Source: Gammaproteobacteria bacterium (GTDB lineage Bacteria; Pseudomonadota; Gammaproteobacteria; VBWC01). Taken from it: 64,000 nucleotides of DNA. Shown here in pieces: positions 7,476 to 43,718 of this stretch (the first letter of the stretch is position 1; each line of letters starts with the position of its first letter). The notes below the pieces were generated by a model. The model was not told the DNA's origin, ran no database searches, and saw only the letters and a list, made by a program, of their open reading frames with translations. The stretch is from NCBI GenBank assembly GCA_023266115.1, contig JAHFRU010000001.1, positions 271,905-335,904 on the forward strand. Reading direction: 5' to 3'. The position numbers and the translations under genes are program-made.

Positions 7476-8626
7476 GCAAGGTTACCCTCCATTTCTGCGG
7501 CACTTGGGAAAGTGAATAGTGCGTAACCCAATATATCTTTCGAGGATGTAAACCGGCTCACAGTCGCGCCGGTCGACGTTGTCAGTTGCATATCGATCGT
7601 ATAGGGATTCAGGTGTGGCGCCATTCGCAGCCCGCGCAGCTTGCCAGGCGATCTGGAATGAATCATCCACGAGGCGTGAAATCCCGGTGGTTTTTCCGGG
7701 CGGAAAGGCAATGTCACCGGTGCGCCGAGCGATTGCATGATGACGATATCCGCCATGTCGACCCCCGTGTGATGTTGAATGAGCAGCGGCAGGCAGTTAC
7801 CGCCGGCGCGTGGCCCGATCTCGATCAACCACAGGTCACCGTTGTTATCGAACATGGCATCGAGATTGAAGACCAGGTTGTCAATGCCAAGTAACGCCAT
7901 GAGCCGTTGCAGCTGCTTCAGAAGCGTCTCCCGTCGTTCCGCGGCAAGGTGGCCCGGGAAGCTCTCGCCAACCGGCGCGTATGCCGAACACTCGCTATCG
8001 AAATGCTCATCGCCGAGGCAAGTAAAGGCGAGTTTGCCATCGACAACCACGCCATCGCCGGCGATCTGGGCGCTGTCCCGCGCTATCCACTGTTCAACGA
8101 TTACGCTTGCGCTACGCGAGTAATGCTGCGCGTTGCGGAAAGCCTGGCCCATGTCGGCGGCATTGTCGACACGGCTCACGCCTTTACTTCCGGATGAATC
8201 GGCCGGTTTGACCATTACCGGAAGCCCCATGGAGCGTGCCACCTCGCACGCCTCTGGAAGATCGGCAGCAACGGCGAACCCGGGCGTATTAAAGCCGTGA
8301 TCTCGCAGGAAAGCGCGAAAGAGAGCCTTGTTCGTCAGTACGTGGACCGCGGCCGGAGGGCATCCGGGAAGACCCATTTGATCGGCTACGTACGCCGCAG
8401 TCCACGCCGCGGGATCGGACGCAAACGCGATAATGCCGTCAATCCTCAATTTCCTGGCCAATGTAAGGACCGCCCGGTGGTCTGTCGTGCTGACGTTATA
8501 ATACTCGTGCGCGAGCCGATGCCCTGGATTATGCGGCACATAATCCACCGTGATCACCCGGTGACCCAGCTTGAGAGCACGCAAGATTACCGGCAGCTGG
8601 AATATGGATCCGCCGAGGATTAGCAA
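7439..8626 (-). CDS. ATP-grasp domain protein (carboxylate-amine ligase type)
   Basis: The 395-aa product opens with a Rossmann-like N-terminus (MLILGGSIFQLPVILRALKLGHRVITVDY). Its ATP-grasp core reads LTNKALFRAFLRDHGFNTPGF...GLPVMVKPADSSGSKGVSRV...LWLIEIGPRAGGN. It is the first gene of the minus-strand operon. Confidence 0.8.
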   Translation of the reverse strand: MLILGGSIFQLPVILRALKLGHRVITVDYVPHNPGHRLAHEYYNVSTTDHRAVLTLARKLRIDGIIAFASDPAAWTAAYVADQMGLPGCPPAAVHVLTNKALFRAFLRDHGFNTPGFAVAADLPEACEVARSMGLPVMVKPADSSGSKGVSRVDNAADMGQAFRNAQHYSRSASVIVEQWIARDSAQIAGDGVVVDGKLAFTCLGDEHFDSECSAYAPVGESFPGHLAAERRETLLKQLQRLMALLGIDNLVFNLDAMFDNNGDLWLIEIGPRAGGNCLPLLIQHHTGVDMADIVIMQSLGAPVTLPFRPEKPPGFHASWMIHSRSPGKLRGLRMAPHLNPYTIDMQLTTSTGATVSRFTSSKDILGYALFTFPSAAEMEGNLACMATSLEPIVA

Positions 8627-8959
8627 CGTTGACAGATTTCCCCCTTGGCGCCCCGTCGGTATTTTTTTATTTCAGGGCTACGGTTACTACTGCTTGTTTC
8701 AATCTAAACGCGGATCGGATTCCCGTCAATAAACGCGTGCTCGACCGGTTGGCCCAGGTGCGATCCGGTGCTAACGGCCGATGAGGATGACGGACCGCCG
8801 AACTTCGGATATTTGTGCCACCTTTGCCGGGAAGGTTTTGATTTCCCATTGACGTGCAGGCCGGCGTCCGCGCAGTTTTTTGTTTTGCCGCAACGACTTA
8901 AGGTGTGCGGGTGTTGTTAACTGCGTGCGATGGTTTACGTCGGGATCGCCAGGGAATCC

Positions 8960-10522
8960 TCATGCCCCGGACTCCATTTTATTCCGTCCGGGCCAGGCTT
9001 TCTTTTGCGCTTGACGCTTCGCAGTCTTTTTGATCGCGGGCGGCGGTTTGATCACCTGCTTATCGAGCAGCAGGTTCAGCGTGTAGCGGATGCCGAATCC
9101 GGTGGTATCGGTCGGTACGTGCGCCAGTCCGCCTTTATTACTACTGGCGCTCAGGTCGACGTGCAGCCAAGGGATATCCTTGCCGACGAAGCGGCTCAAG
9201 AAACGCGTCGCGAGGATGTGATCCGCCGTGCCGTCGAGGGCGCACTGCTTGATATCGGCGATGTCGCTGTCAAGCGCCTTGTCGTAATCGGCATCGGTCG
9301 GAAACGGCCAGACGCGCTCGCCGCTGTCGCGCCCGGCCGCAATCACGTCGGCCAGCATCTCGTCGCGATTGGTAAACGCGCCGCTGTAGGCGGTGCCCAG
9401 CGCATGTACGCAGGAACCGGTCAGCGTTGCATAATCGATGATCAGGTCCGGTTTGGCTTGTGAGGCGATCGCCAGCGTATCGGCCAGCACCATGCGGCCC
9501 TCGGCATCGGTATGCACCACTTCAATCGTCGTGCCGTTGCTCGCCGTCACGATGTCGTTTGGCTTGTAGGCCTTGGGGCCGACGTGGTTCTGCGCCAGAG
9601 CGAGCCAGCAGTCGACGGCGATGTCGGCCTTGATCCCGGTAAGCGCCAGCAGCGTGCCGAGCGCAACAGCGCTGCCGGCCATGTCTTCGTGCATGCCGTA
9701 CATGAACTTCGCCGGTTTCACGTTGACGCCGCCGGTGTCGTAACAAATACCCTTGCCGACCAGCGCCAGTTTTCGTTTGGCATGGCGCGGCCGGTATTGC
9801 AGATGCACAATGCCGGCATCCGCCGCGGCGCTGCCCTGCGCAACGGCGAGAAATGCGCCGGCCTTTTTGCGCTTTAATGCGGCGGTATCGAGAAACTGCA
9901 TGCGCCAGCCGTGTTGCCGGGTGAGCGTCGCAATACGTTTGCGATACATCGCCGGCGTCAGCTCGTTCGACGGCAGTATCGTCAGCTCGCGCGCAAGATT
10001 ATTACCGGCCGCCTCGGCCAGGGTACGGGCAAGATCGATTTGTTTGCCCACGCCGTGCAGTGCGACCGTGGCCAGGCGCTTCGGTTTCGGTTGCTTGCTT
10101 TTGAATTGCGGCAGCTCGGCCGATGCGGCGAGCAGCGCCGCCACCAGCGCCAGCGCCGCGTGTTCGGTGTCGGCGGGGGTTAGCCCGGCGAACAGTACAT
10201 CAATATTGGCGGGATCAGCGCCGAGCAGCGCCGCAACCGCCTTGCGCGCCAGTGTCAGCCGTTGGAACGCGCTGCTGTCCGCTGCCAGCCAGATGCACGC
10301 CACCCGGGTACCGGTACCGTTCGGCAGCTCCGTCACGAATGGCTCCGTCGTGCCCACCCGGTCGCCGAGGCGCTCAAAACGCTTCTTGATGATGTCTCGG
10401 TACGCAAAAACCGGCCAGGCCGGTTTGGCGTCGCTACACGGCAATACCACGATCAACGCGTCAATAGAATCAACGGCCTTTTCGGCCGGCGCGTTCAGGT
10501 TCTGTTTTACCTTGATTTTCAT
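8960..10522 (-). CDS. pepA: Leucyl aminopeptidase, peptidase family M17
   Basis: M17 signature NTDAEGRMVLADTL and the catalytic region VGKGICYDTGGVNVKP...HEDMAGSA. The product is 520 aa. Confidence 0.9.
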   Translation of the reverse strand: MKIKVKQNLNAPAEKAVDSIDALIVVLPCSDAKPAWPVFAYRDIIKKRFERLGDRVGTTEPFVTELPNGTGTRVACIWLAADSSAFQRLTLARKAVAALLGADPANIDVLFAGLTPADTEHAALALVAALLAASAELPQFKSKQPKPKRLATVALHGVGKQIDLARTLAEAAGNNLARELTILPSNELTPAMYRKRIATLTRQHGWRMQFLDTAALKRKKAGAFLAVAQGSAAADAGIVHLQYRPRHAKRKLALVGKGICYDTGGVNVKPAKFMYGMHEDMAGSAVALGTLLALTGIKADIAVDCWLALAQNHVGPKAYKPNDIVTASNGTTIEVVHTDAEGRMVLADTLAIASQAKPDLIIDYATLTGSCVHALGTAYSGAFTNRDEMLADVIAAGRDSGERVWPFPTDADYDKALDSDIADIKQCALDGTADHILATRFLSRFVGKDIPWLHVDLSASSNKGGLAHVPTDTTGFGIRYTLNLLLDKQVIKPPPAIKKTAKRQAQKKAWPGRNKMESGA

Positions 10523-20574: not shown

Positions 20575-20690
20575 AGACCCTCGTCATTCCCGCGAACTCG
20601 GGAATCCGGATTTTTTTCCAAACCAACAAACTCTGGATTCCGGGTCGGCGCTGCGCGCCGCCCGGAATGACAGTTTCGAGTTCTGATGGG
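20575..20690. repeat. Hairpin-module repeat (gtcattcccgcgaa..gggaatcc / ggattccgg...cccggaatgac)
   Basis: It shares its hairpin modules with MITE families 1 and 2. It lies in a 576-bp intergenic region packed with repeats. Confidence 0.6.
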
Positions 20691-20928
20691 TTATGCCTGT
20701 GGCTCCACCCATCCCGCAAATCGCGGATCCTGCTTTTTACTTCCTCTCCCTCAGGGAGAGGGTTGGGGTGAGGGGGGGGATTCATCGTTGCGGTAAATTC
20801 GCCTCGTTCCCGGCAGTATCGCCATGCATTGCCCTCGACCGCCGCTCGCGGCATTGCGCTACCCCGCCGTGCCGGTTGTCACAACCGCGCGGATCGTCGA
20901 GAATCACCTCAGGAACCTCTGATTAAGT

Positions 20929-21040
20929 GTCATTTCGAGCCCTGTCCCGAGCATCGCGATGGAGCTGGCGAGAAATCCGGGTGGTAAACACTTCGAGGCG
21001 ATTCCACCACATCAGGATTTTTCCCTGCGGTCGAAATGAC
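20929..21040. repeat. Dispersed palindromic repeat, family 3, second copy
   Basis: Same outer inverted repeat as 16227-16328 (gtcatttcgagccctgtcccgagc...ccctgcggtcgaaatgac). The central segment differs. Confidence 0.7.
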
Positions 21041-22766: not shown

Positions 22767-22913
22767 GAGAACTGCACACTATTGCCCCCCCCCTCTCACT
22801 TAGGGAGAGGGGGGGGTGAGGGGATATATACGATATGCAGTCACTTTTTCTGTGCGCAGGCTCACCGTGCTACCATTTCCATTCCACCTGAATTCAGCAT
22901 CAACCAGGGACGT

Positions 22914-23744
22914 CATATGAAAAACCTCAGCGCCATACTGTCCGCCACCATCCTTTCAGCCTTAGCGCTAATCACCACCCCGGCCCACGCCGCCGACGAC
23001 ACCACCGCCGCCCTTAGCAAAGTACTCGCCGGCGAACACCGCTCGGCAGAAAACAAGGCGCGCGATAAATACCGCCACCCGATCGAAACGCTGGAATTCT
23101 TTGAAGTCAAACCCGACATGACTGTCGTCGAGATATTCCCCGGTGGTGGTTGGTATACCGAAGTCCTCGCGCCGTTTTTAAAAGACAAAGGCACCTATTA
23201 CGCCGCCGGTAACGATCCCGAATCCCACAGCAAGTTTTCCAGACAGAGCGCGAAAAGTTTCCAGGAGAAAATGGCATCCAGCGACATCTATAGCAAGGTC
23301 AACATCACCGTGCTGGAGCCGCCCAAACACACCACCGTCGCCCCGGCCGGCAGCGCGGACCGCGTGCTGACGTTTCGCAACATCCACAACTGGATGAAGG
23401 CCGGCACCGCCGATGCGGTATTCGCCGCGATGTACAAGGCACTGAAACCCGGCGGCATACTCGGCGTCGTCGAACACCGCGGCGACGCCAGCGTGGAGCA
23501 AGACCCCGAGGCAGGTTCAGGCTACGTCAACCAGGACTACGCGATTGCGCTCGCCGAAAAAGCCGGCTTCAAATTCGTCGCCAGCAGCGAAATCAACGCA
23601 AACCCCAAAGACACCAGGAACTATAAAAAAGGTGTCTGGACATTACCGCCGACACTCGCGCTGAAAGACAAGGACAAAGACGTCTACCTCGCCATCGGCG
23701 AGAGCGACCGGTTTACGTTGAAGTTTGTTAAGCAGGGGGAATGA
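22914..23744 (+). CDS. Predicted periplasmic class I SAM-dependent methyltransferase (COG4798-like)
   Basis: The start MKNLSAILSATILSALALITTPAHA forms a signal peptide. Downstream motifs are VVEIFPGGGWYTEVLAP and LKPGGILGVVEH. The ORF-track start at 22782 is over-extended into a REP element. Confidence 0.75.
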   Translation, partial: HMKNLSAILSATILSALALITTPAHAADDTTAALSKVLAGEHRSAENKARDKYRHPIETLEFFEVKPDMTVVEIFPGGGWYTEVLAPFLKDKGTYYAAGNDPESHSKFSRQSAKSFQEKMASSDIYSKVNITVLEPPKHTTVAPAGSADRVLTFRNIHNWMKAGTADAVFAAMYKALKPGGILGVVEHRGDASVEQDPEAGSGYVNQDYAIALAEKAGFKFVASSEINANPKDTRNYKKGVWTLPPTLALKDKDKDVYLAIGESDRFTLKFVKQGE

Positions 23745-24086
23745 GTAGGAAAACGGCTCTTTCCACTGACCGTCATCGGAAACTCTTATCACGAGTAGAA
23801 GGTCAGCGGTTTCACGAAATCCAATTTGATTGGCGGCATGGTTGGTTTTTATTTGGACCGTTTTCCCGTCGTGTGTGAGCGCATCGTAACTACTGGCGCC
23901 AGATGGAGCCTTTGTCAGGCTGTAGTGATCGATAGCGATAAGTTCGCCGAAATCCCCAAGTAAGTTTCCCAGGCCGCTCCAGTTATGTTCCGGCGCAAGG
24001 TTCCGTAGAGCCTTCTGCGAGGCAAAAATGCTGGCCAGCACGTGTTGGATGGCGGCTATTCTTTGCTGTTTGTCGCCGCTAGTCAT
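23643..24086 (-). CDS. Hypothetical 147-aa protein in a low-GC islet (possible PD-(D/E)xK-like nuclease fold)
   Basis: The ORF lies downstream of an XRE-family HTH gene on the same strand. Local GC is about 50% against about 63% in flanking DNA. The motif is ...GDFGELIAIDHY...YDALTHDGKTVQIKT. Its 3' end overlaps the convergent methyltransferase gene by about 100 nt, so the exact extent is uncertain. Confidence 0.4.
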   Translation of the reverse strand: MTSGDKQQRIAAIQHVLASIFASQKALRNLAPEHNWSGLGNLLGDFGELIAIDHYSLTKAPSGASSYDALTHDGKTVQIKTNHAANQIGFRETADLLLVIRVSDDGQWKEPFSYSFPLLNKLQRKPVALADGEVDVFVLVFQRECRR

Positions 24087-24141
24087 TTTTGTGCTTCAAG
24101 GGCGGAGAAGCCGGAAATGGTGGGGTCAACGTTCTGCATCG

Positions 24142-24447
24142 CTATGCCCCTTTCAATTCTTTGAGCAAGCTTTTACGTTGCGTTCTTGGCATCTGTCCTA
24201 GCGACAGCATTAGCTCGGCCAGTAGGTCGTCCCTGCAATAGAAGAAAGGCGTCGGTACGCCTAGGGCCCCGGCCAACCGCTCCATGGTTTGGAAGTCCGG
24301 GGTGTGTTTGCCGGTTTCGTATTGGTTTATCCGCGGGCTGGCGGAAAATTCATCGATACCCGCTTTAATGCCAAGCGCCTTTTGAGAAAGCCCGGCCCGC
24401 TCGCGTGCCTGTCGCAGTCGTTCGGGTATAGGAGTATTGCCAGCCAT
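24142..24447 (-). CDS. XRE-family helix-turn-helix transcriptional regulator
   Basis: The motif ERLRQARERAGLSQKALGIKAGIDEFSASPRINQYETGKHTPDFQTMERLAGALGV is a classic HTH_XRE. The product is 101 aa. Confidence 0.8.
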   Translation of the reverse strand: MAGNTPIPERLRQARERAGLSQKALGIKAGIDEFSASPRINQYETGKHTPDFQTMERLAGALGVPTPFFYCRDDLLAELMLSLGQMPRTQRKSLLKELKGA

Positions 24448-24528
24448 AATGTCTCTCGACCGATATATCGTTGACTAGCTAAGAGATTCTTAGTATTTTT
24501 TGCGTTTTGGATACTAAAGAATCCTTAG
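24448..24528. promoter_or_regulatory. Divergent promoter region with two imperfect palindromic operator-like sites (CTAAGAGATTCTTAG; CTAAAGAATCCTTAG)
   Basis: The two 15-bp near-palindromes are about 30 bp apart. They lie between the XRE gene (minus strand) and the ankyrin gene (plus strand). A TTGACT hexamer sits adjacent. Confidence 0.45.
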
Positions 24529-25131
24529 ATGCGTGGAATCAGGCCGGGAAAGTCGTTGAATGCGACGGTTCGGAGATGCGTCCTCGTGATTCTCGTGTGT
24601 CTGGCGCTTGCCTGCGCCACCACCCCACACCTACCCGACGTCGTCGCGACCGGCGATCTGGCCGAGGTCGAACGGTTGATCGAACACGACGCAGCGCTGG
24701 ACGAACGCGAAAAGCGCTATGGCCGAACGGCATTGCACATGGCGGCGATGGGTGGGCATGTCGAGGTGGTACGGGCGTTGTTGGCGCAGGGCGCGGCGGT
24801 GAATGGCGGGGACAGTTACGGGTTTACGGCATTGCATTTGGCGGTATGGCAGGGGCGGGCGGCGGTGGTGGAGGTGTTGTTAGCCGCTGGCGCGGATGTG
24901 AATGCCAACCGTAACCACAGGCGCGTGACGCCGTTGCATGTCGCCGCGCAGTTCGGGCATGCGGTAATCGCGCGACGCTTGATCGCGGCGGGGGCGGATG
25001 CGAATGTAAGGGCAGGGAACGGGGAGACGGCGTTGGGGGTGGCGAGGCGGTTGGGGAGGAGTAAGGTAGCGGAGGTGTTAGCGGCGGTAAGGGCTGGGTC
25101 CGCATGGTTGGTTTGGTGGGCCCAGCCGTAG
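24529..25131 (+). CDS. Ankyrin-repeat protein (secreted or lipoprotein)
   Basis: It has an N-terminal signal/lipoprotein-like sequence (VLVILVCLALACATT). At least four ankyrin repeats follow (GRTALHMAAMGGHVEVVRALLAQGAAVN; GFTALHLAVWQGRAAVVEVLLAAGADVN; ...). Confidence 0.85.
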   Translation: MRGIRPGKSLNATVRRCVLVILVCLALACATTPHLPDVVATGDLAEVERLIEHDAALDEREKRYGRTALHMAAMGGHVEVVRALLAQGAAVNGGDSYGFTALHLAVWQGRAAVVEVLLAAGADVNANRNHRRVTPLHVAAQFGHAVIARRLIAAGADANVRAGNGETALGVARRLGRSKVAEVLAAVRAGSAWLVWWAQP

Positions 25132-25233: not shown

Positions 25234-26475
25234 ATGCCTGCCCAATCCCTGATTACTCGCTTTCTGCGCCCGAGATTGATCGAAGCGCTTGCAGACACGC
25301 CGGTCGTTCTGGTACATGGTCCTCGCCAGTGCGGTAAGTCGACGCTGGTGCAAACCGTCAAGGGGTATACCTACATCACCTTCGACGATGAGGTGCAACT
25401 TGCGGCGGTGAAGGCTGACCCGGTAGGTTTTGTGGCGGATTTACCGGACAGGGTGATTCTTGACGAGGTCCAGCGCGCACCGGGGCTGTTCGCTACGCTG
25501 AAGGCGGCAGTGGACCGCGATCGTCGGCCGGGGCGTTTCATTTTGACTGGTTCAGCCAATGTGCTGCTAGCACCGAAATTGTCGGATTCGCTCGCCGGAC
25601 GGATGGAGTTATTGCGGCTTCACCCCCTGGCGCAGTGTGAGGTCGCGGGGGGCATGCCCCATTTTCTCGATGTGCTTTTCGCGGGTGGGTTCAAGGCGCG
25701 GAAGTACGACCGCCTGGGTGCGGAGTTGGCGGAGCGCATCGTCGCAGGTGGATATCCGGCAGCGTTGGCACGCGGCTCCGGCCGTCGCCGGCGTGAATGG
25801 TATCGGGCTTACATCGAAGCACTGGTGCAACGCGATGTACGGGAGTTGGCGCGCATCAGCGCATTGGATGCATTGCCACGGTTGCTGCAACTCGCTGCGG
25901 GCCAGTCGGCACGATTGCTGAACGTCAGCGAACTAGCCGCGCCGTTTCAATTGAGCCGGCCGACCATTCGCGACTATGTGACGCTGCTGGAACGCATATT
26001 TGTGATCGAGATGCTCCCGCCGTGGCACAGCAACCGGCTGAGTCGATTGGTGAAGACTCCAAAATTGCACATGGGCGATACGGGTCTTATAGCGAGTCTG
26101 CTTGGCGTAGATGCAGCAGCGCTAGCGAAGGATCGTGCGTTGCTCGGCCAGTTGTTGGAGACATTCGTATTTCAGGAGCTGCGGCGGCAAGCAAGTTGGC
26201 ATGAGGACGCCATCGGTTTCCATCATTTCCGTGACAAGGACGGCTACGAGGTTGACATTGTACTGGAACGCGAGGGGCGGGACATCGCGGGAGTTGAGAT
26301 CAAGGCGGCGGCGACGACAGTCACGGAGTCGGATTTCCGCGGGTTGCGAAAACTCAAGGGCACAAGCGGCGCGCGGTTTGTCGCTGGTGTCGTGTTATAC
26401 GATGGAGAGAGCGCTGTACGGTTCGCAGATGATTTATTCGCAGTGCCAATCAAGGCGCTCTGGGGTATGAAATGA
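25234..26475 (+). CDS. AAA+ ATPase with DUF4143 domain (COG1373)
   Basis: Walker A motif LVHGPRQCGKST and Walker B motif RVILDEVQ. The C-terminal part is DUF4143-like. Confidence 0.85.
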   Translation: MPAQSLITRFLRPRLIEALADTPVVLVHGPRQCGKSTLVQTVKGYTYITFDDEVQLAAVKADPVGFVADLPDRVILDEVQRAPGLFATLKAAVDRDRRPGRFILTGSANVLLAPKLSDSLAGRMELLRLHPLAQCEVAGGMPHFLDVLFAGGFKARKYDRLGAELAERIVAGGYPAALARGSGRRRREWYRAYIEALVQRDVRELARISALDALPRLLQLAAGQSARLLNVSELAAPFQLSRPTIRDYVTLLERIFVIEMLPPWHSNRLSRLVKTPKLHMGDTGLIASLLGVDAAALAKDRALLGQLLETFVFQELRRQASWHEDAIGFHHFRDKDGYEVDIVLEREGRDIAGVEIKAAATTVTESDFRGLRKLKGTSGARFVAGVVLYDGESAVRFADDLFAVPIKALWGMK

Positions 26476-27535: not shown

Positions 27536-28081
27536 CTAATACCTGCCGTTCGTCTTGCTGATGTAGTTACTCAGCTGCCGGCTTTCGTGGTTCATGCGCA
27601 TCAGATTCGTGTGCGTGTTACGGAACAAGGCGCGCATCACCTTGTAGACAACACCGGGATTCGTCTCCAGCAGGGCCTCGAACGCGTCGGGTTCAATGGA
27701 ATAAACAACAGCGTCGCCTGCCGCGCGCAGCTTCGCTGTGCGGGGTGTACGGTCGACAAAGGCGCGGGTTCCGGCGCATTCGCCGGCTTTCATGATGTAC
27801 AGCTTGATCTCCTGATCTTCCCTCGCTCGGATGACCGCGAGCTTGCCGCTGGCCAGCAGAAACAGCGCATTGTTTTGATCGCCTTCTGATACCAGTATCT
27901 CGCCGTCGGTTAAAACACGCGCGACCATGGCGCGCGCCAGCACCTGACATTCCGTGTCATGCAGTTCCGCACCGATAGAAGAGACCCCTATGACTTCAGG
28001 GTCTGGCCGATCGTTGATCGCCGGGTGGTCTTCGTTGCACGCCACTGGGCGCGCGTCGTTATTATGTTGAAAACTTTTCAC
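27536..28081 (-). CDS. Cyclic nucleotide-binding domain protein (stand-alone cNMP-binding/Crp effector domain)
   Basis: The sequence GEILVSEGDQNNALFLLASGKLAVIRAREDQEIKLYIMKAGECAGTRAFVDRTPRTAKLRAAGDAVVYSI matches the cNMP-binding beta-roll. Confidence 0.8.
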   Translation of the reverse strand: MKSFQHNNDARPVACNEDHPAINDRPDPEVIGVSSIGAELHDTECQVLARAMVARVLTDGEILVSEGDQNNALFLLASGKLAVIRAREDQEIKLYIMKAGECAGTRAFVDRTPRTAKLRAAGDAVVYSIEPDAFEALLETNPGVVYKVMRALFRNTHTNLMRMNHESRQLSNYISKTNGRY

Positions 28082-28570
28082 ACTAAAGCTCCATATGAAT
28101 CAAATAAACCAGGGGTTGTGTAATAGATACGGGTCTTCCTGTAACCCGTAGAAGGCGAATCTAACGGCCGACCCTGTCCAATCTTTAGTAGGCGTATCGA
28201 AGTAGCAGGAACCGTGATGAAATCGTGACATTCGTGTGACGGAGGTGGGGTGACCCGGGATCTAATACGCGATCAGTGAGAATGAGACACGCGTTATGGC
28301 GGTTTGGTTCCAGGTGGCGATGAATGAGTTTGTGATGGCGGGGCTGAGGTTAACGGGGTGGCGGAACACGGATCGGGTTCGAATGTTGGGCTGCGCGGGC
28401 GCGGGCAACCTGCGGGACTTGGCACCTGATTTTTCTTCCAGAGTAATAATGTGATGAAAAATACAAAATTTCACGTCGCCTGTTACATACCCGCATGAGC
28501 GTGATGCCGATTTCTGACCAGGCAGTGGAAAATACTTTCTTTATTGACGAACCCGGGTATATTGCGTTTA

Positions 28571-28776
28571 CTATCGGGAATTACCTATAAGCGTGACACG
28601 GCCAACGGCTGTCATTCCCGCGAAAGCGCGACTGCATGGATGCAGGAGGGGCGGCGTCGGGAACAGCCGCCGAGGAATCCAGCGCCATTCACAACCGCTG
28701 GATTCCGGGTCTTCGCTGTGCTCCGCCCGGAATGACGGTCGCGATGTGTTGTCACGTCATTTGGTAATTCTCAATA
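28571..28776. mobile_element. Miniature inverted-repeat element, family 2 (~205 bp; TIR CTATCGGGAATTACC ... GGTAATTCTCAATAG)
   Basis: Terminal inverted repeats are present. The internal modules are gtcattcccgcgaaagcg, the near-palindrome ctgcatggatgcag and ggattccgggtc...cccggaatgac. An inverted copy with about 90% identity lies at 33896-34126. Confidence 0.75.
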
Positions 28777-34126: not shown

Positions 34127-34252
34127 AATACGGCCTGAAATTCCTGGATTCCCGTTTCCACGGGAATGACGTATACGTGGGGCAGCCGCGGGTTGCGCCC
34201 GTTGTCGTACGTGGTTTGCTAAACATAGACCGGATTAAACGGGAGTCACAAC

Positions 34253-35334: not shown

Positions 35335-36052
35335 GTCGAGGTTGGAGATTAGTAGTTTGTTATCTTGAACAAGTCAGGCGCAGAGAACAACGATTTCTGT
35401 TCAGCAAGGAGGAGTGTCTTGTCGCGGTGCTCCTGGTCACCATGTTCGCGGCGCCCGTTCCCGACGCCGCTCTCGGTCCTCGCGCCCGGCAGGACGACCC
35501 CTCCGTCCCCGGCCCGGGCGTAGGCGGAAAGGACAGGATGTCAGATGCATGGGCCTTTGATCATGATCGCGTGACCCGGCCGGTGCACATCTGGCGGGGA
35601 GGCGGATCACTATGTGCCGCTGCTGCCGGCGCAACCGTTGTTCGCTATACGGAACAAGCCAGGCAAGCCTCTATTCCGGCGAAGGCCGCATGCTGCTGTT
35701 CCCGCACTGGAACGACATCATCGCGCCGTTTGCGGACCCGGTACCGAGCGCCTGAGCAGGTCAGCGGCAGGCGGGCGTGGAATCGCGTGGGTCGTCTCCC
35801 GGGCCTCGGTGTTCACAGGGGCGGGCAGCGCGCAGTGCCAGAATCCCGTAGCAGCGGGTCGCGGAGACCGGGTTGCCGCGTTCACGGGATTGACGGAGTG
35901 GGACGTGCGCGAACTTTGTGTCCGCCGGGAGCAGGAACCACACTAATGCCTTCGCCATTTCGGGCGACGCGCAGCGCGGAACCGGAATCCAGTGGTGGAT
36001 AGCGCTGCTTCAGGATAGATGTCGAGGCTCATGTTGCCGGGTTGCCGCCCCG

Positions 36053-37660: not shown

Positions 37661-38029
37661 GTGGCATCGGATAACGACAAGTTGCACAAGGTGGTGGCCG
37701 ACGCGCGGCGCGCCCGTGATAGCCGCGAACAGGATTACCGCGAGCAGGCGCTAAAAATGTACCCGCCGGTTTGCGGGCGCTGCTGCCGCGAGTTTACGCG
37801 CAAGAATCTGCATGAGCTGACCGTGCACCACCGTGATCACAATCACGGCAATAATCCCGCCGATGGCAGTAACTGGGAGTTGTTGTGCATGTACTGCCAT
37901 GACAACGAACACCAGCGGCAGCTGGAGGCGCAACAGGGCAATACCGCCACCGGCAGCGCCAAGGGTGCGACTGCTACGTTTAATCCGTTTGCCGATCTCA
38001 AGGCGAAGCTGGGCAAGAAGCCCCCGTAG
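37661..38029 (+). CDS. yajD: YajD-family HNH nuclease
   Basis: YPPVCGRCCREFTRKNLHELTVHHRDHNHGNNPADGSNWELLCMYCHDNEH carries the HNH/His-Me finger Cys-His cluster of YajD. Confidence 0.85.
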   Translation: MASDNDKLHKVVADARRARDSREQDYREQALKMYPPVCGRCCREFTRKNLHELTVHHRDHNHGNNPADGSNWELLCMYCHDNEHQRQLEAQQGNTATGSAKGATATFNPFADLKAKLGKKPP

Positions 38030-38189
38030 TCTGGAAGCAGGCGCGTAGCGCCGGAATTCGGGTCGTGGTTCGGCATACCCGGATTTCGCCGCGCGTCATC
38101 CAGGCTGCGAGCGAACTGGATGTGGTGCAGGGCGCATACGACTGGTGATATGAATGCCTTCGTATCGGTTTTGGATATGAGCTTGCCAT

Positions 38190-38320
38190 AAGCGTCCCTT
38201 CTCCTCCCGGGAGAAGGACAGGATGAGGGGATCTGATAAAGGGGGTACAGGGATAACGGTATGAATTTACCCCCCTCACCCTGAGCCTCGACCCTCCGGG
38301 TATGAATCCGGGCGGGAGAG
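38190..38320. repeat. REP-like palindromic elements (cccttctcctcccgggagaagg; cccctcaccctg...gggcgggagaggg)
   Basis: The same cccttctcc..gggagaagg hairpin occurs at 12725-12760. Confidence 0.55.
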
Positions 38321-38510
38321 GGACTTCTCAAAAAAGTTTTGTTCGTAGTGCGAGCGAAGCTTCCGAAAAACTTCGCTGTTCACCGTAGCGGCAAAGGGAC
38401 TGACCTCTGTTTTATTTTATCGAGATTCAGTACATTATTGACAGGCGCCGTCTGATGGGACCGCCGTGGTTGATCGAATGATTTTCCGTCAATTATCAGG
38501 AGCAAATATC

Positions 38511-39917: not shown

Positions 39918-40095
39918 GTGCCGCGGTTATCGGTGCGGGGAATGCCGGATTTCTCGCGCGCTGCTCCCGGCAGGACGCTGCCTCTTCCATCCATGGAGGC
40001 TCGCTTGCGTCGGACAGACGAGGCGCGGATGCGCTTCAGGTAGCCGCCGTTTTTTAACTTGAGTTGCCCCGCTTCATTGCTTCGAGGGTATCGAA

Positions 40096-40374: not shown

Positions 40375-41240
40375 TGGGCAATGCGTCGCAGTACGCCAGC
40401 GCCGACGTGCCTGAGGATGTGGCGACGGGTCCGCTGTTAACCTTGAAAGAACACGTGGCTTTGATCGCGGCCGTACAGGCCGGCGCGCCGCATGTCGAGT
40501 GCTCGCTGGATCTCGGCCGGTCGACGGAGAGCGTTGCGATAGGCGTTGACGGCTGGGTCTGGCAAGGCCGGTTATATCCGTACCTCGATATCTGCAAGGA
40601 CAGAACCATCTACTACCGGGTGGACGGAACGTTTGCGCCGGTATCGCGCTACGCGACGTCGCTGATCAAACTGGTGCCGACCGAGTGGGGACCGCCGACC
40701 TTTGAAATCGACGGCATTAAGATGTTGCCGACCGTGCAGACCTCGCCCTATGACGACGCCCGACGCAAGGTCGCGTTGATTCAACCGCGCGGCAAGGTGA
40801 TTCTGGATACCTGCGGGGGGCTGGGCTATTTCGCCGCGTGGTGCGTGCAGGGTCTGGCCAAACAGGTGCTTTCTTATGAAAAGAATCCCGACGTGATCTG
40901 GTTGCGCAGCTTGAATCCCTGGTCGCCCGGCGCAGATGATGTGTTGAGCCTGACGCGGGGCGACATCGTCGAGCAGATTGCGGCGCTGCCCGGCGGTTCG
41001 GTCGATGCCATCTTGCACGACCCGCCGCGCTTCGGTATCGCGGGCGAACTCTACTCGCAGGTTTTTTATGACCAGCTTGCCCGGGTGATGAAGCGCAAGG
41101 GCAAGCTGTTTCACTACACCGGGACCCCGAACAAATTAACCAGCGGCCGCGACGTACCCAATGAAGTGGTGACACGCTTGCGCCGCGCGGGTTTTGTGGC
41201 GGCGCCGAGCGGTGATGGGCTGTTGGCGGTAAAGCGCTAA
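40371..41240 (+). CDS. Putative class I SAM-dependent methyltransferase
   Basis: A glycine-rich motif (VILDTCGGLGYFA) and an acidic motif (AILHDPPRFG) are present. It is coupled to the upstream gene by an ATGA overlap. Confidence 0.55.
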   Translation: MMGNASQYASADVPEDVATGPLLTLKEHVALIAAVQAGAPHVECSLDLGRSTESVAIGVDGWVWQGRLYPYLDICKDRTIYYRVDGTFAPVSRYATSLIKLVPTEWGPPTFEIDGIKMLPTVQTSPYDDARRKVALIQPRGKVILDTCGGLGYFAAWCVQGLAKQVLSYEKNPDVIWLRSLNPWSPGADDVLSLTRGDIVEQIAALPGGSVDAILHDPPRFGIAGELYSQVFYDQLARVMKRKGKLFHYTGTPNKLTSGRDVPNEVVTRLRRAGFVAAPSGDGLLAVKR

Positions 41241-41550
41241 ACGGTAATCCTGCAAAGGGCACGCGCTCTGGCCCCGTTTCTTCGGAATAAGCCGGAAACA
41301 CGGCGTCAGGCGGCGGCGTGTCAAGAAACCCCCTTATTCTTGACGGAACTAACCCATAACGGCATAGTCTGAATTGGTGTTCGCGGGTCTTGATCACGTC
41401 AACACGGATAAGAAGCGCGGACAATTTGCAGTTTGCCGTATTGTTGTTTGTCGGTTAGTAGCGGAATACCCTCTGTGGTGTCCTCCTGTCATCCTTCCTT
41501 CATGACTCTCACGCAGACTTTTTTGTAATTAGTTCAAGGAATATTTTTTA

Positions 41551-41754
41551 ATGAAGACTGGTATTGTAAAGTGGTTTGACGCTTCAAAAGGCTTTGGTTT
41601 TATTTCTCCCGAAGATGGTGACAAGGATGTGTTTGTACATCACTCCGCTATCACCGGCGATGGATACAAAAGCCTCGATGAAGGTCAGCGGGTATGCTTC
41701 GACGTCCAGAACGGCGCGAAAGGCCTGGCCGCTGCCAATGTTGTCGCCGTCTAA
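41551..41754 (+). CDS. cspA: Cold-shock protein (CspA family)
   Basis: [34 protein letters not shown] carries the RNP motifs of cold-shock domains. A long 5' UTR lies upstream. Confidence 0.95.
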
Positions 41755-41785
41755 AGCGCGCCAACATTAGCAAGGTGTAGTACGG

Positions 41786-41815
41786 AACCCCGCCAATGGC
41801 GGGGTTTCTTTTTTG
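41786..41815 (+). terminator. Rho-independent terminator (AACCCCGCCaatgGCGGGGTT followed by TCTTTTTT)
   Basis: An 8-9-bp GC-rich stem with a 4-nt loop and a T-tract lies 30 nt after the cspA stop. Confidence 0.85.
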
Positions 41816-42001
41816 TGAGGTAAAAAAACAAAGAAAAGTCAGCAGGGTTCGATCTCATTTATTATTTTCTGGAAAAAAAAAGGGTTAACGGATTAGTATG
41901 TGTGCCTAACCTGGCTACGTTCCGGCTTTCAATAGCCCCTTGTGTATTTGATCACATTTGCGTGAATCGCTGGATCACAGACCCGCCGGCATTGTCGCGG
42001 T

Positions 42002-42727
42002 GTGTGCGGAGACAATATGGAAAGTATCGTAAGCGGCATCGGCAGCTACCGGGGACTGGCGGTAATCGGTGTTGAATTTGCGCTTGTTGTCATCGCCTTT
42101 CTGGTGTGCGCCGGTGTTGCGCGAATTGTCATTAGTCGGCTAAGCGCAGCCGATCTTCTTGGCCAGGCTCAAGGCAAGGCCAAACATCTTCAGCGCACGG
42201 CGAACTGGCTGTTCTTGCTGCTGGCAATTCTGGCCTGTGTCGCCGTGGCCGTGATCAACGGCTACTATATTTACAAGGGCGAGGATATATACGCGCGCAC
42301 CCGGGAATTTATTGCCAACATCCCTCCCGAATACTGGACCCGTTTAGGGTTAGGCCTCGCAAAAATATCCGGTCTTGCCGTTCTCGCGTGGTTCGTTATC
42401 CGCATGTTGCGACGTGGCCTGTCCCGTTTACGGGACAAGGCTATGGCCTGGGAAAGAATACGAACGAATGAAGAAAGCGTTGCGAAATTCTTTCGTGCCC
42501 TAAATAACATACAAACCAATGGTATCTGGTTGTATATCGTTGCCTTGTCAATCGGCATCCTTGCCCTGCCGGCGACGATAGAAGACACGTTGTATATTGT
42601 CCTGAGGATATACTTGATCGTCGCGATTGGCCTTTTGGTGACCAACGCCGTGGCGGCTATAGTCGATAGCATGGATGCCGTGAGCAGGCGCTACGCGAAA
42701 CCAGGTAACTGGCTGGCCGGAGTATGA
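42002..42727 (+). CDS. Integral membrane protein (multi-TM), possible N-terminal extension module of the adjacent MscS channel
   Basis: It has 5-6 hydrophobic helices. It ends 4 nt before the MscS gene, in a different frame. The start is probably the ATG at 42017. Confidence 0.5.
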   Translation: MCGDNMESIVSGIGSYRGLAVIGVEFALVVIAFLVCAGVARIVISRLSAADLLGQAQGKAKHLQRTANWLFLLLAILACVAVAVINGYYIYKGEDIYARTREFIANIPPEYWTRLGLGLAKISGLAVLAWFVIRMLRRGLSRLRDKAMAWERIRTNEESVAKFFRALNNIQTNGIWLYIVALSIGILALPATIEDTLYIVLRIYLIVAIGLLVTNAVAAIVDSMDAVSRRYAKPGNWLAGV

Positions 42728-42731
42728 ACGC

Positions 42732-43718
42732 ATGCGTGTGCTGGTGCCGACGCTCAGGCGAACGCTCGAATACATCCTGTACGTGATCGCAACCAGTTTG
42801 ATACTGCTGCAACTGGAATTCATCGCGGAACTCGCGAAATACGGGCCGATGATAGTGCAGGCCCTGGGGATCGTGTTTCTGGCGAGAGTGGCGGTGGAAA
42901 TCGCCGATCTGCTGGTCGACAAGACGATGGTGAAAGGCGACGAGCTATCGAGCCTGGAGCGCCAGCGCGAGCAGACGCTTATTCCTATTATTAAAAACCT
43001 GATTAAATACATTTTGTATTTTATTGCCGTTGTTCTGGTCTTGGGGGCAATCAACGTCAATCCCTGGCCATTGCTAGCCGGTGCCGGCATCGTGGGCGTG
43101 GTCGTCGGTTTGGGCGCGCAGCCCCTGATAAACGATATTCTTGCTGGATTCTTTATTCTCTTTGAGAATCTTTTTTTGGTCGATGACTTTATCGAAGCCG
43201 GTCCAGCGCGTGGTGTTGTCGAAGGTATCCAGATGCGTACCACGCGTATTCGTGATCCTGATGGCCAGCTGCATATCCTGCGCAACGGCGAGATCAGGGA
43301 AGTCGTCAATTATTCCAAGGGATTTACCAATGCCGTGGTTGAAGTAGGTGTTGCCTACGACTCGAACCTCTATCATGTTTATACAGTACTCGAAGACGCC
43401 GGGAAGGCCCTCAAAGAAACCAACGCCAGCGTGTTGGCACCTACAGTCGTCGAAGGGCTGGTGAGATTCGGCGAATCGGATCTGGCCATCAGGACCGTTA
43501 CCCGCGTCCGGCCCGGAGCCCATGGGGTCGTCGCACGGTGCAAACTGATAAAAGATGCCTTTGATAAGGAGGGCATTGAAATACCCTATGCGCGCCGCGT
43601 ACTCATAATAAAAAAAGAAGGCGAACCAGGGGGGGGGCGGGCGTCGAATCGTAAGTTCTACACAGCGCCGTCAGAGCCAATATCCCTGCCCTATCGGTAC
43701 GTTTCGTGGATTGGGTGA
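42732..43718 (+). CDS. Mechanosensitive ion channel protein, MscS family
   Basis: Three TM helices include the pore helix GAGIVGVVVGLGAQPLINDILAGFFILFEN. The beta domain reads IRDPDGQLHILRNGEIREVVNYSKG. Confidence 0.85.
   Translation: MRVLVPTLRRTLEYILYVIATSLILLQLEFIAELAKYGPMIVQALGIVFLARVAVEIADLLVDKTMVKGDELSSLERQREQTLIPIIKNLIKYILYFIAVVLVLGAINVNPWPLLAGAGIVGVVVGLGAQPLINDILAGFFILFENLFLVDDFIEAGPARGVVEGIQMRTTRIRDPDGQLHILRNGEIREVVNYSKGFTNAVVEVGVAYDSNLYHVYTVLEDAGKALKETNASVLAPTVVEGLVRFGESDLAIRTVTRVRPGAHGVVARCKLIKDAFDKEGIEIPYARRVLIIKKEGEPGGGRASNRKFYTAPSEPISLPYRYVSWIG

Follow-up and report, generated by a model that had tools for sequence, protein, structure and literature searches.

A probable decayed restriction-type defence cassette with an intact controller gene and a truncated BisI-family nuclease gene in a gammaproteobacterial genome

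Gene content and base composition of the islet

Positions 23745–24528 of the DNA analysed here, 64,000 nucleotides from the genome of a Gammaproteobacteria bacterium (contig JAHFRU010000001.1 of assembly GCA_023266115.1), form an islet of low guanine-plus-cytosine (GC) content. The whole stretch is referred to below as the window, and positions are counted from its first letter. The islet holds two small genes, which encode a helix–turn–helix (HTH) protein and a nuclease-like protein. It is probably a decayed restriction-type defence cassette, consisting of an intact controller gene of the C.Csp231I class with its operators, and a BisI-family nuclease gene that has suffered a 3' deletion. This reading can be assigned a probability of roughly 0.78.

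Both genes lie on the minus strand, as co-oriented open reading frames (ORFs) of 101 amino acids (24142..24447) and 147 amino acids (23643..24086). An earlier note on this DNA had described the pair in the same terms, and the coordinates confirm both. The genes are separated by a spacer of 55 nt (24087..24141, minus strand). The 3' end of the longer ORF shares 102 nt (23643–23744) with a convergent methyltransferase-like gene, which agrees with the overlap of about 100 nt reported in the note.

The GC content of the islet is 51.5%, against 59.5% both in the 3-kb flanks and in the window as a whole, which places it in the lowest 1.4% among same-size intervals of the 64 kb. The flanks are uneven, with 56.7% in the left 1 kb and 63.1% in the right, and the drop begins within the 3' end of the methyltransferase-like gene. 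The dip that had been described is therefore real, while the uniform 63% that had been given for the flanks holds for the right-hand kilobase only. Four other intervals of the window (27781–28541, 37841–38401, 41041–41901, and 42241–42981) are equally low in GC (47–52%). Taken together, the observations of the earlier note stand for the ORFs, the GC dip, and the overlap, and fail for the flanking GC and for the origin by insertion.

Controller protein and its operators

The 101-residue product of the intact gene at 24142..24447 matches the generic XRE-type models HTH_31 and HTH_3 of Pfam, which bears out its earlier assignment to the XRE family of HTH proteins. It also matches the PADLOC model Control_protein (PDLC03667) with an E value of 5.6e-26 over 93 of its 101 positions. 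A phmmer search aligns residues 9–94 with residues 4–89 of the C.Csp231I structure (PDB 3lfp; E 1e-22), and matches to antitoxin models of the HipB/MqsA type are weak and sub-threshold. [quoted passage not shown] These two proteins form a separate class of C-proteins (Sorokin motif-8), with operators that consist of two CTAAG-N5-CTTAG palindromes and an unusually long spacer (PMC4321490, PMC4824078). The published spacers measure 18 bp for Csp231I and 25 bp for EcoO109I (PMC4321490).

The 81-bp region 5' of the C gene contains just such a pair of C-boxes. The proximal, OR-like box (CTAAGAGATTCTTAG, 24479..24493) fits CTAAG-N5-CTTAG exactly, and the distal, OL-like box (CTAAAGAATCCTTAG, 24514..24528) does so with one mismatch; between them lies an AT-rich spacer of 20 bp (24494..24513). 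When both strands of the 64 kb are scanned with one mismatch allowed, these boxes are the only two matches, where 0.4 would be expected by chance. Exact pairs among 103 loci occur only directly 5' of homologues of the HTH gene (L001, L048, L049, and L050/51), and every HTH homologue that was fetched has a box pair directly upstream.

Two of these loci are close relatives of the window. L001, from a gammaproteobacterial metagenome-assembled genome (MAG), is the closest genome; it is syntenic, its flanks are about 85–90% identical, and its C protein shares 91% amino acid identity with that of the window. L048 shares the ankyrin gene that lies upstream, the operators, and the C gene, with a C protein 88% identical. 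The box pair is conserved in L001, L048, L049, and L050, and in L001 and L048 the distal box, at the corresponding position, matches the motif in full. The intergenic region of the window is 93% identical to that of L001, compared with 75–85% for adjacent coding DNA. The ratio of non-synonymous to synonymous substitution rates (dN/dS) of the C gene is 0.07. Together, the box pair, the intergenic identity, and the low dN/dS show, at the level of sequence comparison, that purifying selection acts on the controller gene and its operators, both of which are intact.

The locus shares several traits with the C.Csp231I and C.EcoO109I systems. Its C protein has a length of about 100 residues and extended C-terminal helices, two 15-bp operators with a long AT-rich spacer lie 5' of the C gene, and this gene is collinear with a downstream endonuclease gene that it does not overlap (55 nt away, and truncated here). 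Unlike those systems, the window lacks a DNA methyltransferase partner, its endonuclease comes from a methyltransferase-independent family and is truncated, and the gene that adjoins its distal operator is a divergent ankyrin gene, not one of an R-M system. No C5 methylase resembling those of related loci was found in the 64 kb. Controllers that look like orphans also occur: the C homologues at L049 3927–4303 and L050/L051 3924–4315 (61–66% identity) have kept their paired boxes, but no nuclease or methylase gene can be recognised next to them.

A DUF6998 nuclease gene and the loss of its 3' end

The 147-residue ORF matches the Pfam family DUF6998 (PF22522) with an E value of 1.1e-21 and a score of 77.7 bits (cut-off 27). 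It matches PADLOC models for 'Type II methyl-directed restriction enzyme' weakly, and a search of NCBIfam with the ORF gave no match. No mention of DUF6998 was found in searchable papers. The profile search that had been proposed for this protein nevertheless leads, by way of PF22522, to the BisI/Eco15I family of endonucleases. A profile of 43 full-length relatives matches Eco15I in the PDB (8q5m, E 2.3e-4), with the helix Glu, the Asp, and the Q-I-K aligned. The nearest full-length relative, P0002 (149 amino acids), was modelled with AlphaFold2 (AF2) at a mean predicted local distance difference test (pLDDT) score of 91.6, and a Foldseek search with this model returned NhoI or Eco15I chains as all of its top 12 matches, followed by PvuII. 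Conversely, nearly all the proteins returned by a search with the Eco15I catalytic domain carry PF22522, and hhalign aligns the profile of Eco15I homologues with the window-type profile at a probability of 97.4% (E 1.3e-11). Profile and model evidence thus place the ORF within the BisI/Eco15I family and identify DUF6998 as that family.

The catalytic motif of the ORF reads GDFGE...YDA...VQIK. The PD-(D/E)xK-type core that the earlier note had discerned is thereby upheld, in the form of the PD-QxK variant. The catalytic residues E48, D68, and Q78-I-K80 are kept in the window ORF and are invariant in both alignments of relatives (A1 and A2), and they align with the E, AD, and QIK of the Eco15I active site (PMC11347163). 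BisI/Eco15I enzymes are small homodimeric PD-QxK nucleases of the modification-dependent (Type IIM) kind; those that have been characterised cut GCNGC only where it carries several 5-methyl- or 5-hydroxymethyl-cytosines, and they require no methyltransferase (PMC11347163, PMC4926085). With BisI, Eco15I, and NhoI (PDB 8q5m, 8q5n, 8q5o, and 8rpx), the window nuclease shares the Pfam family, the E...D...Q-I-K site, and a small size of about 145–175 amino acids. With BisI, it also shares a solitary occurrence, at times beside a C5 methylase or Vsr gene (PMC4926085). PvuII, a type IIP endonuclease with the controller C.PvuII, by contrast needs its own methyltransferase and a GACT-type C-box, neither of which is present in the window.

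The window subclade differs from the solved Eco15I and NhoI enzymes, to which it is about 20% identical, and forms a separate and very conserved group. In the HMMER alignment, its R-D-N-K-H lies opposite the Eco15I-like H-V-N-A-H. At the place of the (H/R)(V/I/T/M) that has been published as the methyl-pocket motif, full-length relatives have an invariant R-D, which agrees with it in its first residue but not in its second; the register of this comparison is ambiguous, as hhalign places it one residue away from the HMMER alignment.

The nuclease gene of the window is incomplete. Its match to PF22522 covers profile positions 2–98 of 136 only, and in alignment A1, which comprises 14 relatives, high identity extends to '...DGQWKE' (residue 110) and is gone thereafter. 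The relatives continue with IYYGxFxxVxxxSRYSARDNKHMIAxSKL, in which R, D, and K are invariant. Residue 110 occupies positions 23757–23759, and the homology to L001 found by blastn ends at 23758; the surviving nuclease gene thus consists of codons 1–110 (23757..24086, minus strand). A junction of 12 nt (23745..23756) separates the last homologous codon from the stop codon of the convergent methyltransferase-like gene. The ORF runs on through this junction and into the antisense of that gene's 3' end, which accounts for a non-homologous tail of 37 codons and a stop (23643..23756, minus strand); the L001 copy of the methyltransferase-like gene yields the same antisense peptide.

The missing C-terminal 39 residues gave no tblastn match in the window, in any frame, at E ≤ 10. 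The truncation is therefore due to a deletion, and a frameshift, which would have left this peptide encoded in another frame, was rejected. The comparison with L001 has the same form. Window positions 25127–23758 correspond to L001 6966–8329, and 23742–22865 to L001 10440–11317, so that between the blastn breakpoints at 23758 and 23742 the window has about 15 bp where L001 has 2,110 bp. By these comparisons, a deletion removed about the last 39 codons of the nuclease gene, and the ORF now reads 37 antisense codons in their place. NCBI, ENA, and Logan assemblies all contain an identical 147-residue protein, which makes an artefact specific to one assembler unlikely, although these assemblies may share their reads. 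The earlier description of this ORF as nuclease-like holds, but the truncation at codon 110 and the loss of the conserved C-terminal quarter had gone unnoticed.

In terms of the P0002 model, which has a complete NhoI/Eco15I-like fold, the deletion has taken half of strand 108–115, helix 116–122, strands 124–126 and 131–135, and the C-terminal helix, and the window ORF has nothing homologous after residue 110. Besides two core beta-strands, the parts lost include the conserved RDNKH segment, the counterpart in the alignment of the H-V region with which NhoI and Eco15I sense the methyl group. In those enzymes, the His-Val pair of this region forms the pocket that receives the internal methyl group in the half-site of the other subunit, and in NhoI the mutant V140A is insoluble and H139A is impaired in activity (PMC11347163). 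The AF2 model of the truncated ORF borrows the family fold through its alignment and is weak evidence, used here only for the fall in confidence along the tail, where pLDDT is 57–68 against 96–97 at the true C-terminus of the full-length relative. On this evidence, the product of the window gene is most likely inactive.

Across the family, the nuclease occurs without a fixed partner. The 43 genome loci examined come from Proteobacteria, Planctomycetes, Cyanobacteria (including Prochlorococcus), Chloroflexi, and archaea, and over the homologous part of the window ORF their nucleases share 50–77% identity with it. No conserved partner gene emerged from these loci when 1,519 neighbouring ORFs were clustered and 150 neighbours were scanned against Pfam. 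The 150 neighbours fell into 141 Pfam families, with Resolvase found five times and C5 methylase, Vsr, and XRE HTH twice each. BisI itself adjoins an inactive C5 methylase (PMC4926085), a setting that the occasional methylase and Vsr neighbours of DUF6998 genes recall. As the family is solitary and lacks a conserved partner, a DUF6998 nuclease should need no antitoxin. A lone, widely transferred endonuclease without a methyltransferase fits a modification-dependent enzyme, and argues against a toxin that requires an antitoxin.

Other copies of the gene have also decayed, at different positions (L044, L045, and L046), so that functional decay is frequent among its members. Five further proteins (P0365, P0366, P0367, P0371, and P0393) end or lose homology after a W-x-E motif at profile positions 108–109, the same place as in the window ORF. 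These are about five among the representatives at 50% identity, one of them frameshift-like, and their excess over chance is marginal. The shared position, together with serine recombinases near five to six loci, had raised the idea of invertible C-terminal cassettes. This was rejected, as no second copy of the C-terminus was found in 45 loci, save for a weak match in L029 (E 6e-3).

By analogy with Csp231I (PMC4824078), dimers of the C protein would bind the two CTAAG-N5-CTTAG boxes 5' of their own gene. Binding at the distal box would activate the C promoter, later binding at the proximal box would repress it, and a bicistronic transcript would read through into the nuclease gene. A full-length nuclease dimer would then cut modified foreign DNA. 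In the window genome, only the controller part of this scheme is likely to work, with the nuclease inactive and the controller probably still regulating its own expression.

Defence genes exchanged behind the controller

In L001, the genes follow the order AhpC, Rdx, ankyrin, C, DUF6998 (149 amino acids), reverse transcriptase (RT), methyltransferase-like, GIY-YIG, and a gene of 564 amino acids. The RT gene (L001 8989–10242, 417 amino acids; PADLOC RT_UG17, E 3e-39) lies directly 3' of the full-length nuclease gene. Measured against L001 as the closest syntenic genome, the deletion in the window would thus have taken the downstream RT gene as well. In L048, homology to the window stops 7 nt before the stop codon of the C gene. 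The DNA that follows (L048 1147–6933) encodes a DrmMII C5 methylase, an endonuclease that resembles the methyl-directed MspJI/AspBHI (E 5e-150), Vsr, DrmB, and a large helicase, a cargo made up of parts of a DISARM class 2 system and a Type IIM enzyme.

The earlier note had proposed a recent insertion, with the overlap between the nuclease and methyltransferase-like genes as its trace. As the same C–nuclease pair occupies the same ankyrin-adjacent place in L001, the islet is not a recent insertion, and the overlap arises from the 3' truncation and read-through. Comparison of the three loci instead indicates that the islet has long occupied its place in a chromosomal defence hot spot, in which the cargo 3' of the controller turns over. 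An intact junction between the methyltransferase-like and ankyrin genes, which had been suggested as a check, was not found among the 48 metagenome loci returned by a single scan with the methyltransferase-like protein. All of these are more distant (at most 80% amino acid identity), and none has an ankyrin, HTH, or DUF6998 gene nearby, so the polarity of insertion is not readable from an empty site.

Several smaller elements distinguish the L001 region. Two direct repeats of 97 nt (8530–8626 and 8851–8934, 86% identical) precede the RT gene, are absent from the window, and could be an RT-associated non-coding RNA. A retron or other known RNA beside this gene was rejected, as Rfam gave no match at E ≤ 1 in L001 6500–12500. 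The GIY-YIG gene (L001 11444–11836, 130 amino acids), between the methyltransferase-like gene and the 564-amino-acid gene, likewise has no counterpart in the window; the short repeats on either side of it are found again at window positions 20912–20981. Palindromic repeats resembling repetitive extragenic palindromic (REP) elements, of the GGATTCCCGCTTTCGCGGGAATGAC type, occur in the window at 20581–20607, 28611–28631, 34144–34171, 35473–35495, and 39962–39996. In L001, a REP-like repeat (10243–10437) follows shortly after the methyltransferase-like gene's stop codon, within the segment that the window lacks.

On the left, the cassette is bordered by the methyltransferase-like gene (22917..23744, plus strand), which is intact, lies outside the cassette, and encodes 275 amino acids (in an ORF of 320 amino acids from a TTG at 22782). 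It is 87% identical in nucleotides to its counterpart in L001, of equal length, with a dN/dS of 0.14. Its description as a methyltransferase gene was not sustained, as the Pfam methyltransferase matches are sub-threshold only (E about 1e-3, below the curated cut-offs) and the N-terminus (MKNLSAILSATILSALALITTPAHA) is judged, on reading, to be a signal peptide. A protein with such a signal peptide would not be a DNA methyltransferase, and both grounds led to its rejection as an R-M partner of the controller and nuclease. On the right, the divergent ankyrin-repeat gene (24529..25131, plus strand; Pfam Ank_2, E 1.5e-30), whose product is read, by inspection of its sequence, as secreted, adjoins the C gene in the window, L001, and L048, in keeping with synteny. 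Beyond it, a gene for an ATPase of 413 amino acids with AAA_14 and DUF4143 domains (25234..26475, plus strand; PADLOC candidate PDC-S01, E 1.5e-166) is present in the window and absent at the same position in L001, which makes it a second variable gene of the hot spot.

Competing explanations and implications

A decayed cassette of this kind amounts to ordinary defence-gene decay in a hot spot, and is neither a recent insertion nor a toxin–antitoxin pair. Of the earlier interpretation, the small HTH gene followed by a small PD-(D/E)xK-type nuclease gene, and their foreign composition, thus stand, whereas the recency and the toxin–antitoxin or abortive-infection function do not.

Some observations weigh against a restriction-type cassette that has decayed. 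The pairing of C gene and nuclease gene occurs in 1 of the 43 genome loci (the L001 contig) and in neither of two close metagenomic relatives; as it is confined to the lineage of the window, the controller may not have co-evolved with this nuclease. Other loci have orphan C homologues that are accompanied by boxes. The methyl-pocket motif is only half met in the window subclade, with a register that differs between HMMER and hhalign, and modification dependence has been demonstrated only in distant members of the family (about 20% identity). Lastly, the 110 retained codons have no excess of non-synonymous change relative to L001 (dN 0.098, with dS saturated). This low dN may reflect a recent truncation or a stump on which selection still acts, two possibilities between which a pair of sequences cannot distinguish.

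The saturation of dS in the nuclease gene (window 23757–24086 against L001 8001–8330) stands beside values of 0.48–0.73 in the flanking methyltransferase-like and C genes. The spacers between C gene and nuclease gene, of 55 nt in the window and 47 nt in L001, are not conserved and cannot be aligned. The two nuclease alleles may be older than their flanks, or may have been exchanged separately.

The alternative that survives best is possible, though on the doubtful side: the HTH protein would act mainly as a local regulator of the divergent ankyrin gene, and the DNA downstream would serve as a landing site for unrelated defence genes. The unit of ankyrin gene, boxes, and C gene is kept in the window, L001, and L048, while all that lies 3' of the C gene's stop codon differs. 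In each of the three, the distal box directly adjoins the ankyrin ATG (24529 in the window), and a sigma-70-like site for the ankyrin gene (TTGACT-17-TATTTT, 24471–24499, plus strand) overlaps the proximal box, so that the controller may also repress ankyrin expression. The existence of C homologues with boxes but no recognisable nuclease, and the unconserved spacer between C gene and nuclease gene, point the same way. Against this, characterised members of the C.Csp231I class control co-transcribed restriction genes (PMC4824078), and the first cargo is of the restriction type in all three loci, being BisI-like in the window and L001 and composed of DrmMII and an MspJI-like enzyme in L048. A regulator of the ankyrin gene is compatible with the decayed cassette, and does not exclude it.

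It is quite improbable that the truncated nuclease is still functional under C control, whether as a nuclease of relaxed specificity, a nicking enzyme, or a DNA-binding or dominant-negative subunit. The 110 N-terminal residues do hold the dimerisation helix and the whole catalytic triad (with E48, D68, Q78, and K80 kept), their dN is low, the ORF is open across 147 codons, and the C gene and operators are intact. Yet the deletion cuts into one modelled strand and removes the helices and strands beyond it, in the region that in NhoI holds H139 and V140, where substitution impairs activity or solubility. Moreover, the tail in their place is antisense sequence from another gene and has a low-confidence model, and the decayed copies in L044, L045, and L046 show that degeneration is common in the family. 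A working two-gene toxin–antitoxin or abortive-infection module, in which the HTH protein would neutralise or silence a small toxic nuclease, is very improbable: the order of regulator and nuclease recalls type II toxin–antitoxin operons, the HTH protein has its weak HipB/MqsA-type matches, and the catalytic residues of the stump are intact, but the HTH protein fits controllers far better and has cognate C-boxes, in 42 of the 43 genome loci the nuclease has neither an HTH gene nor any other recurrent partner beside it, the window copy lacks a quarter of its fold, and the same HTH gene precedes quite different genes in L048.

Starting from the decayed cassette, a broader suggestion can be made, although it is tentative and rather unlikely. 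The ankyrin gene, C gene, and boxes would form a fixed regulatory landing pad, behind which methyltransferase-independent, modification-dependent nucleases are exchanged (BisI-like in the window and L001; MspJI-like, with DISARM, in L048). Separately, the RDNKH subclade, which extends from Proteobacteria to Prochlorococcus and archaea, would differ in specificity from GCNGC with 5-methylcytosine. With such a landing pad, control of methyltransferase-less restriction enzymes by C proteins would be a real regulatory arrangement and no accident.

The window locus itself matters little, as both of its genes are of known kinds and the copy is decayed, but it exemplifies a controller gene that has outlived its nuclease. 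Three close relatives, with three different defence cargos behind one conserved controller gene, provide a compact case of cargo turnover in a hot spot. With DUF6998, a family listed as of 'unknown function', identified as the BisI/Eco15I family, hundreds of 'hypothetical proteins' become annotatable, and the highly conserved R-D-N-K-H subclade is a candidate for a new recognition specificity.

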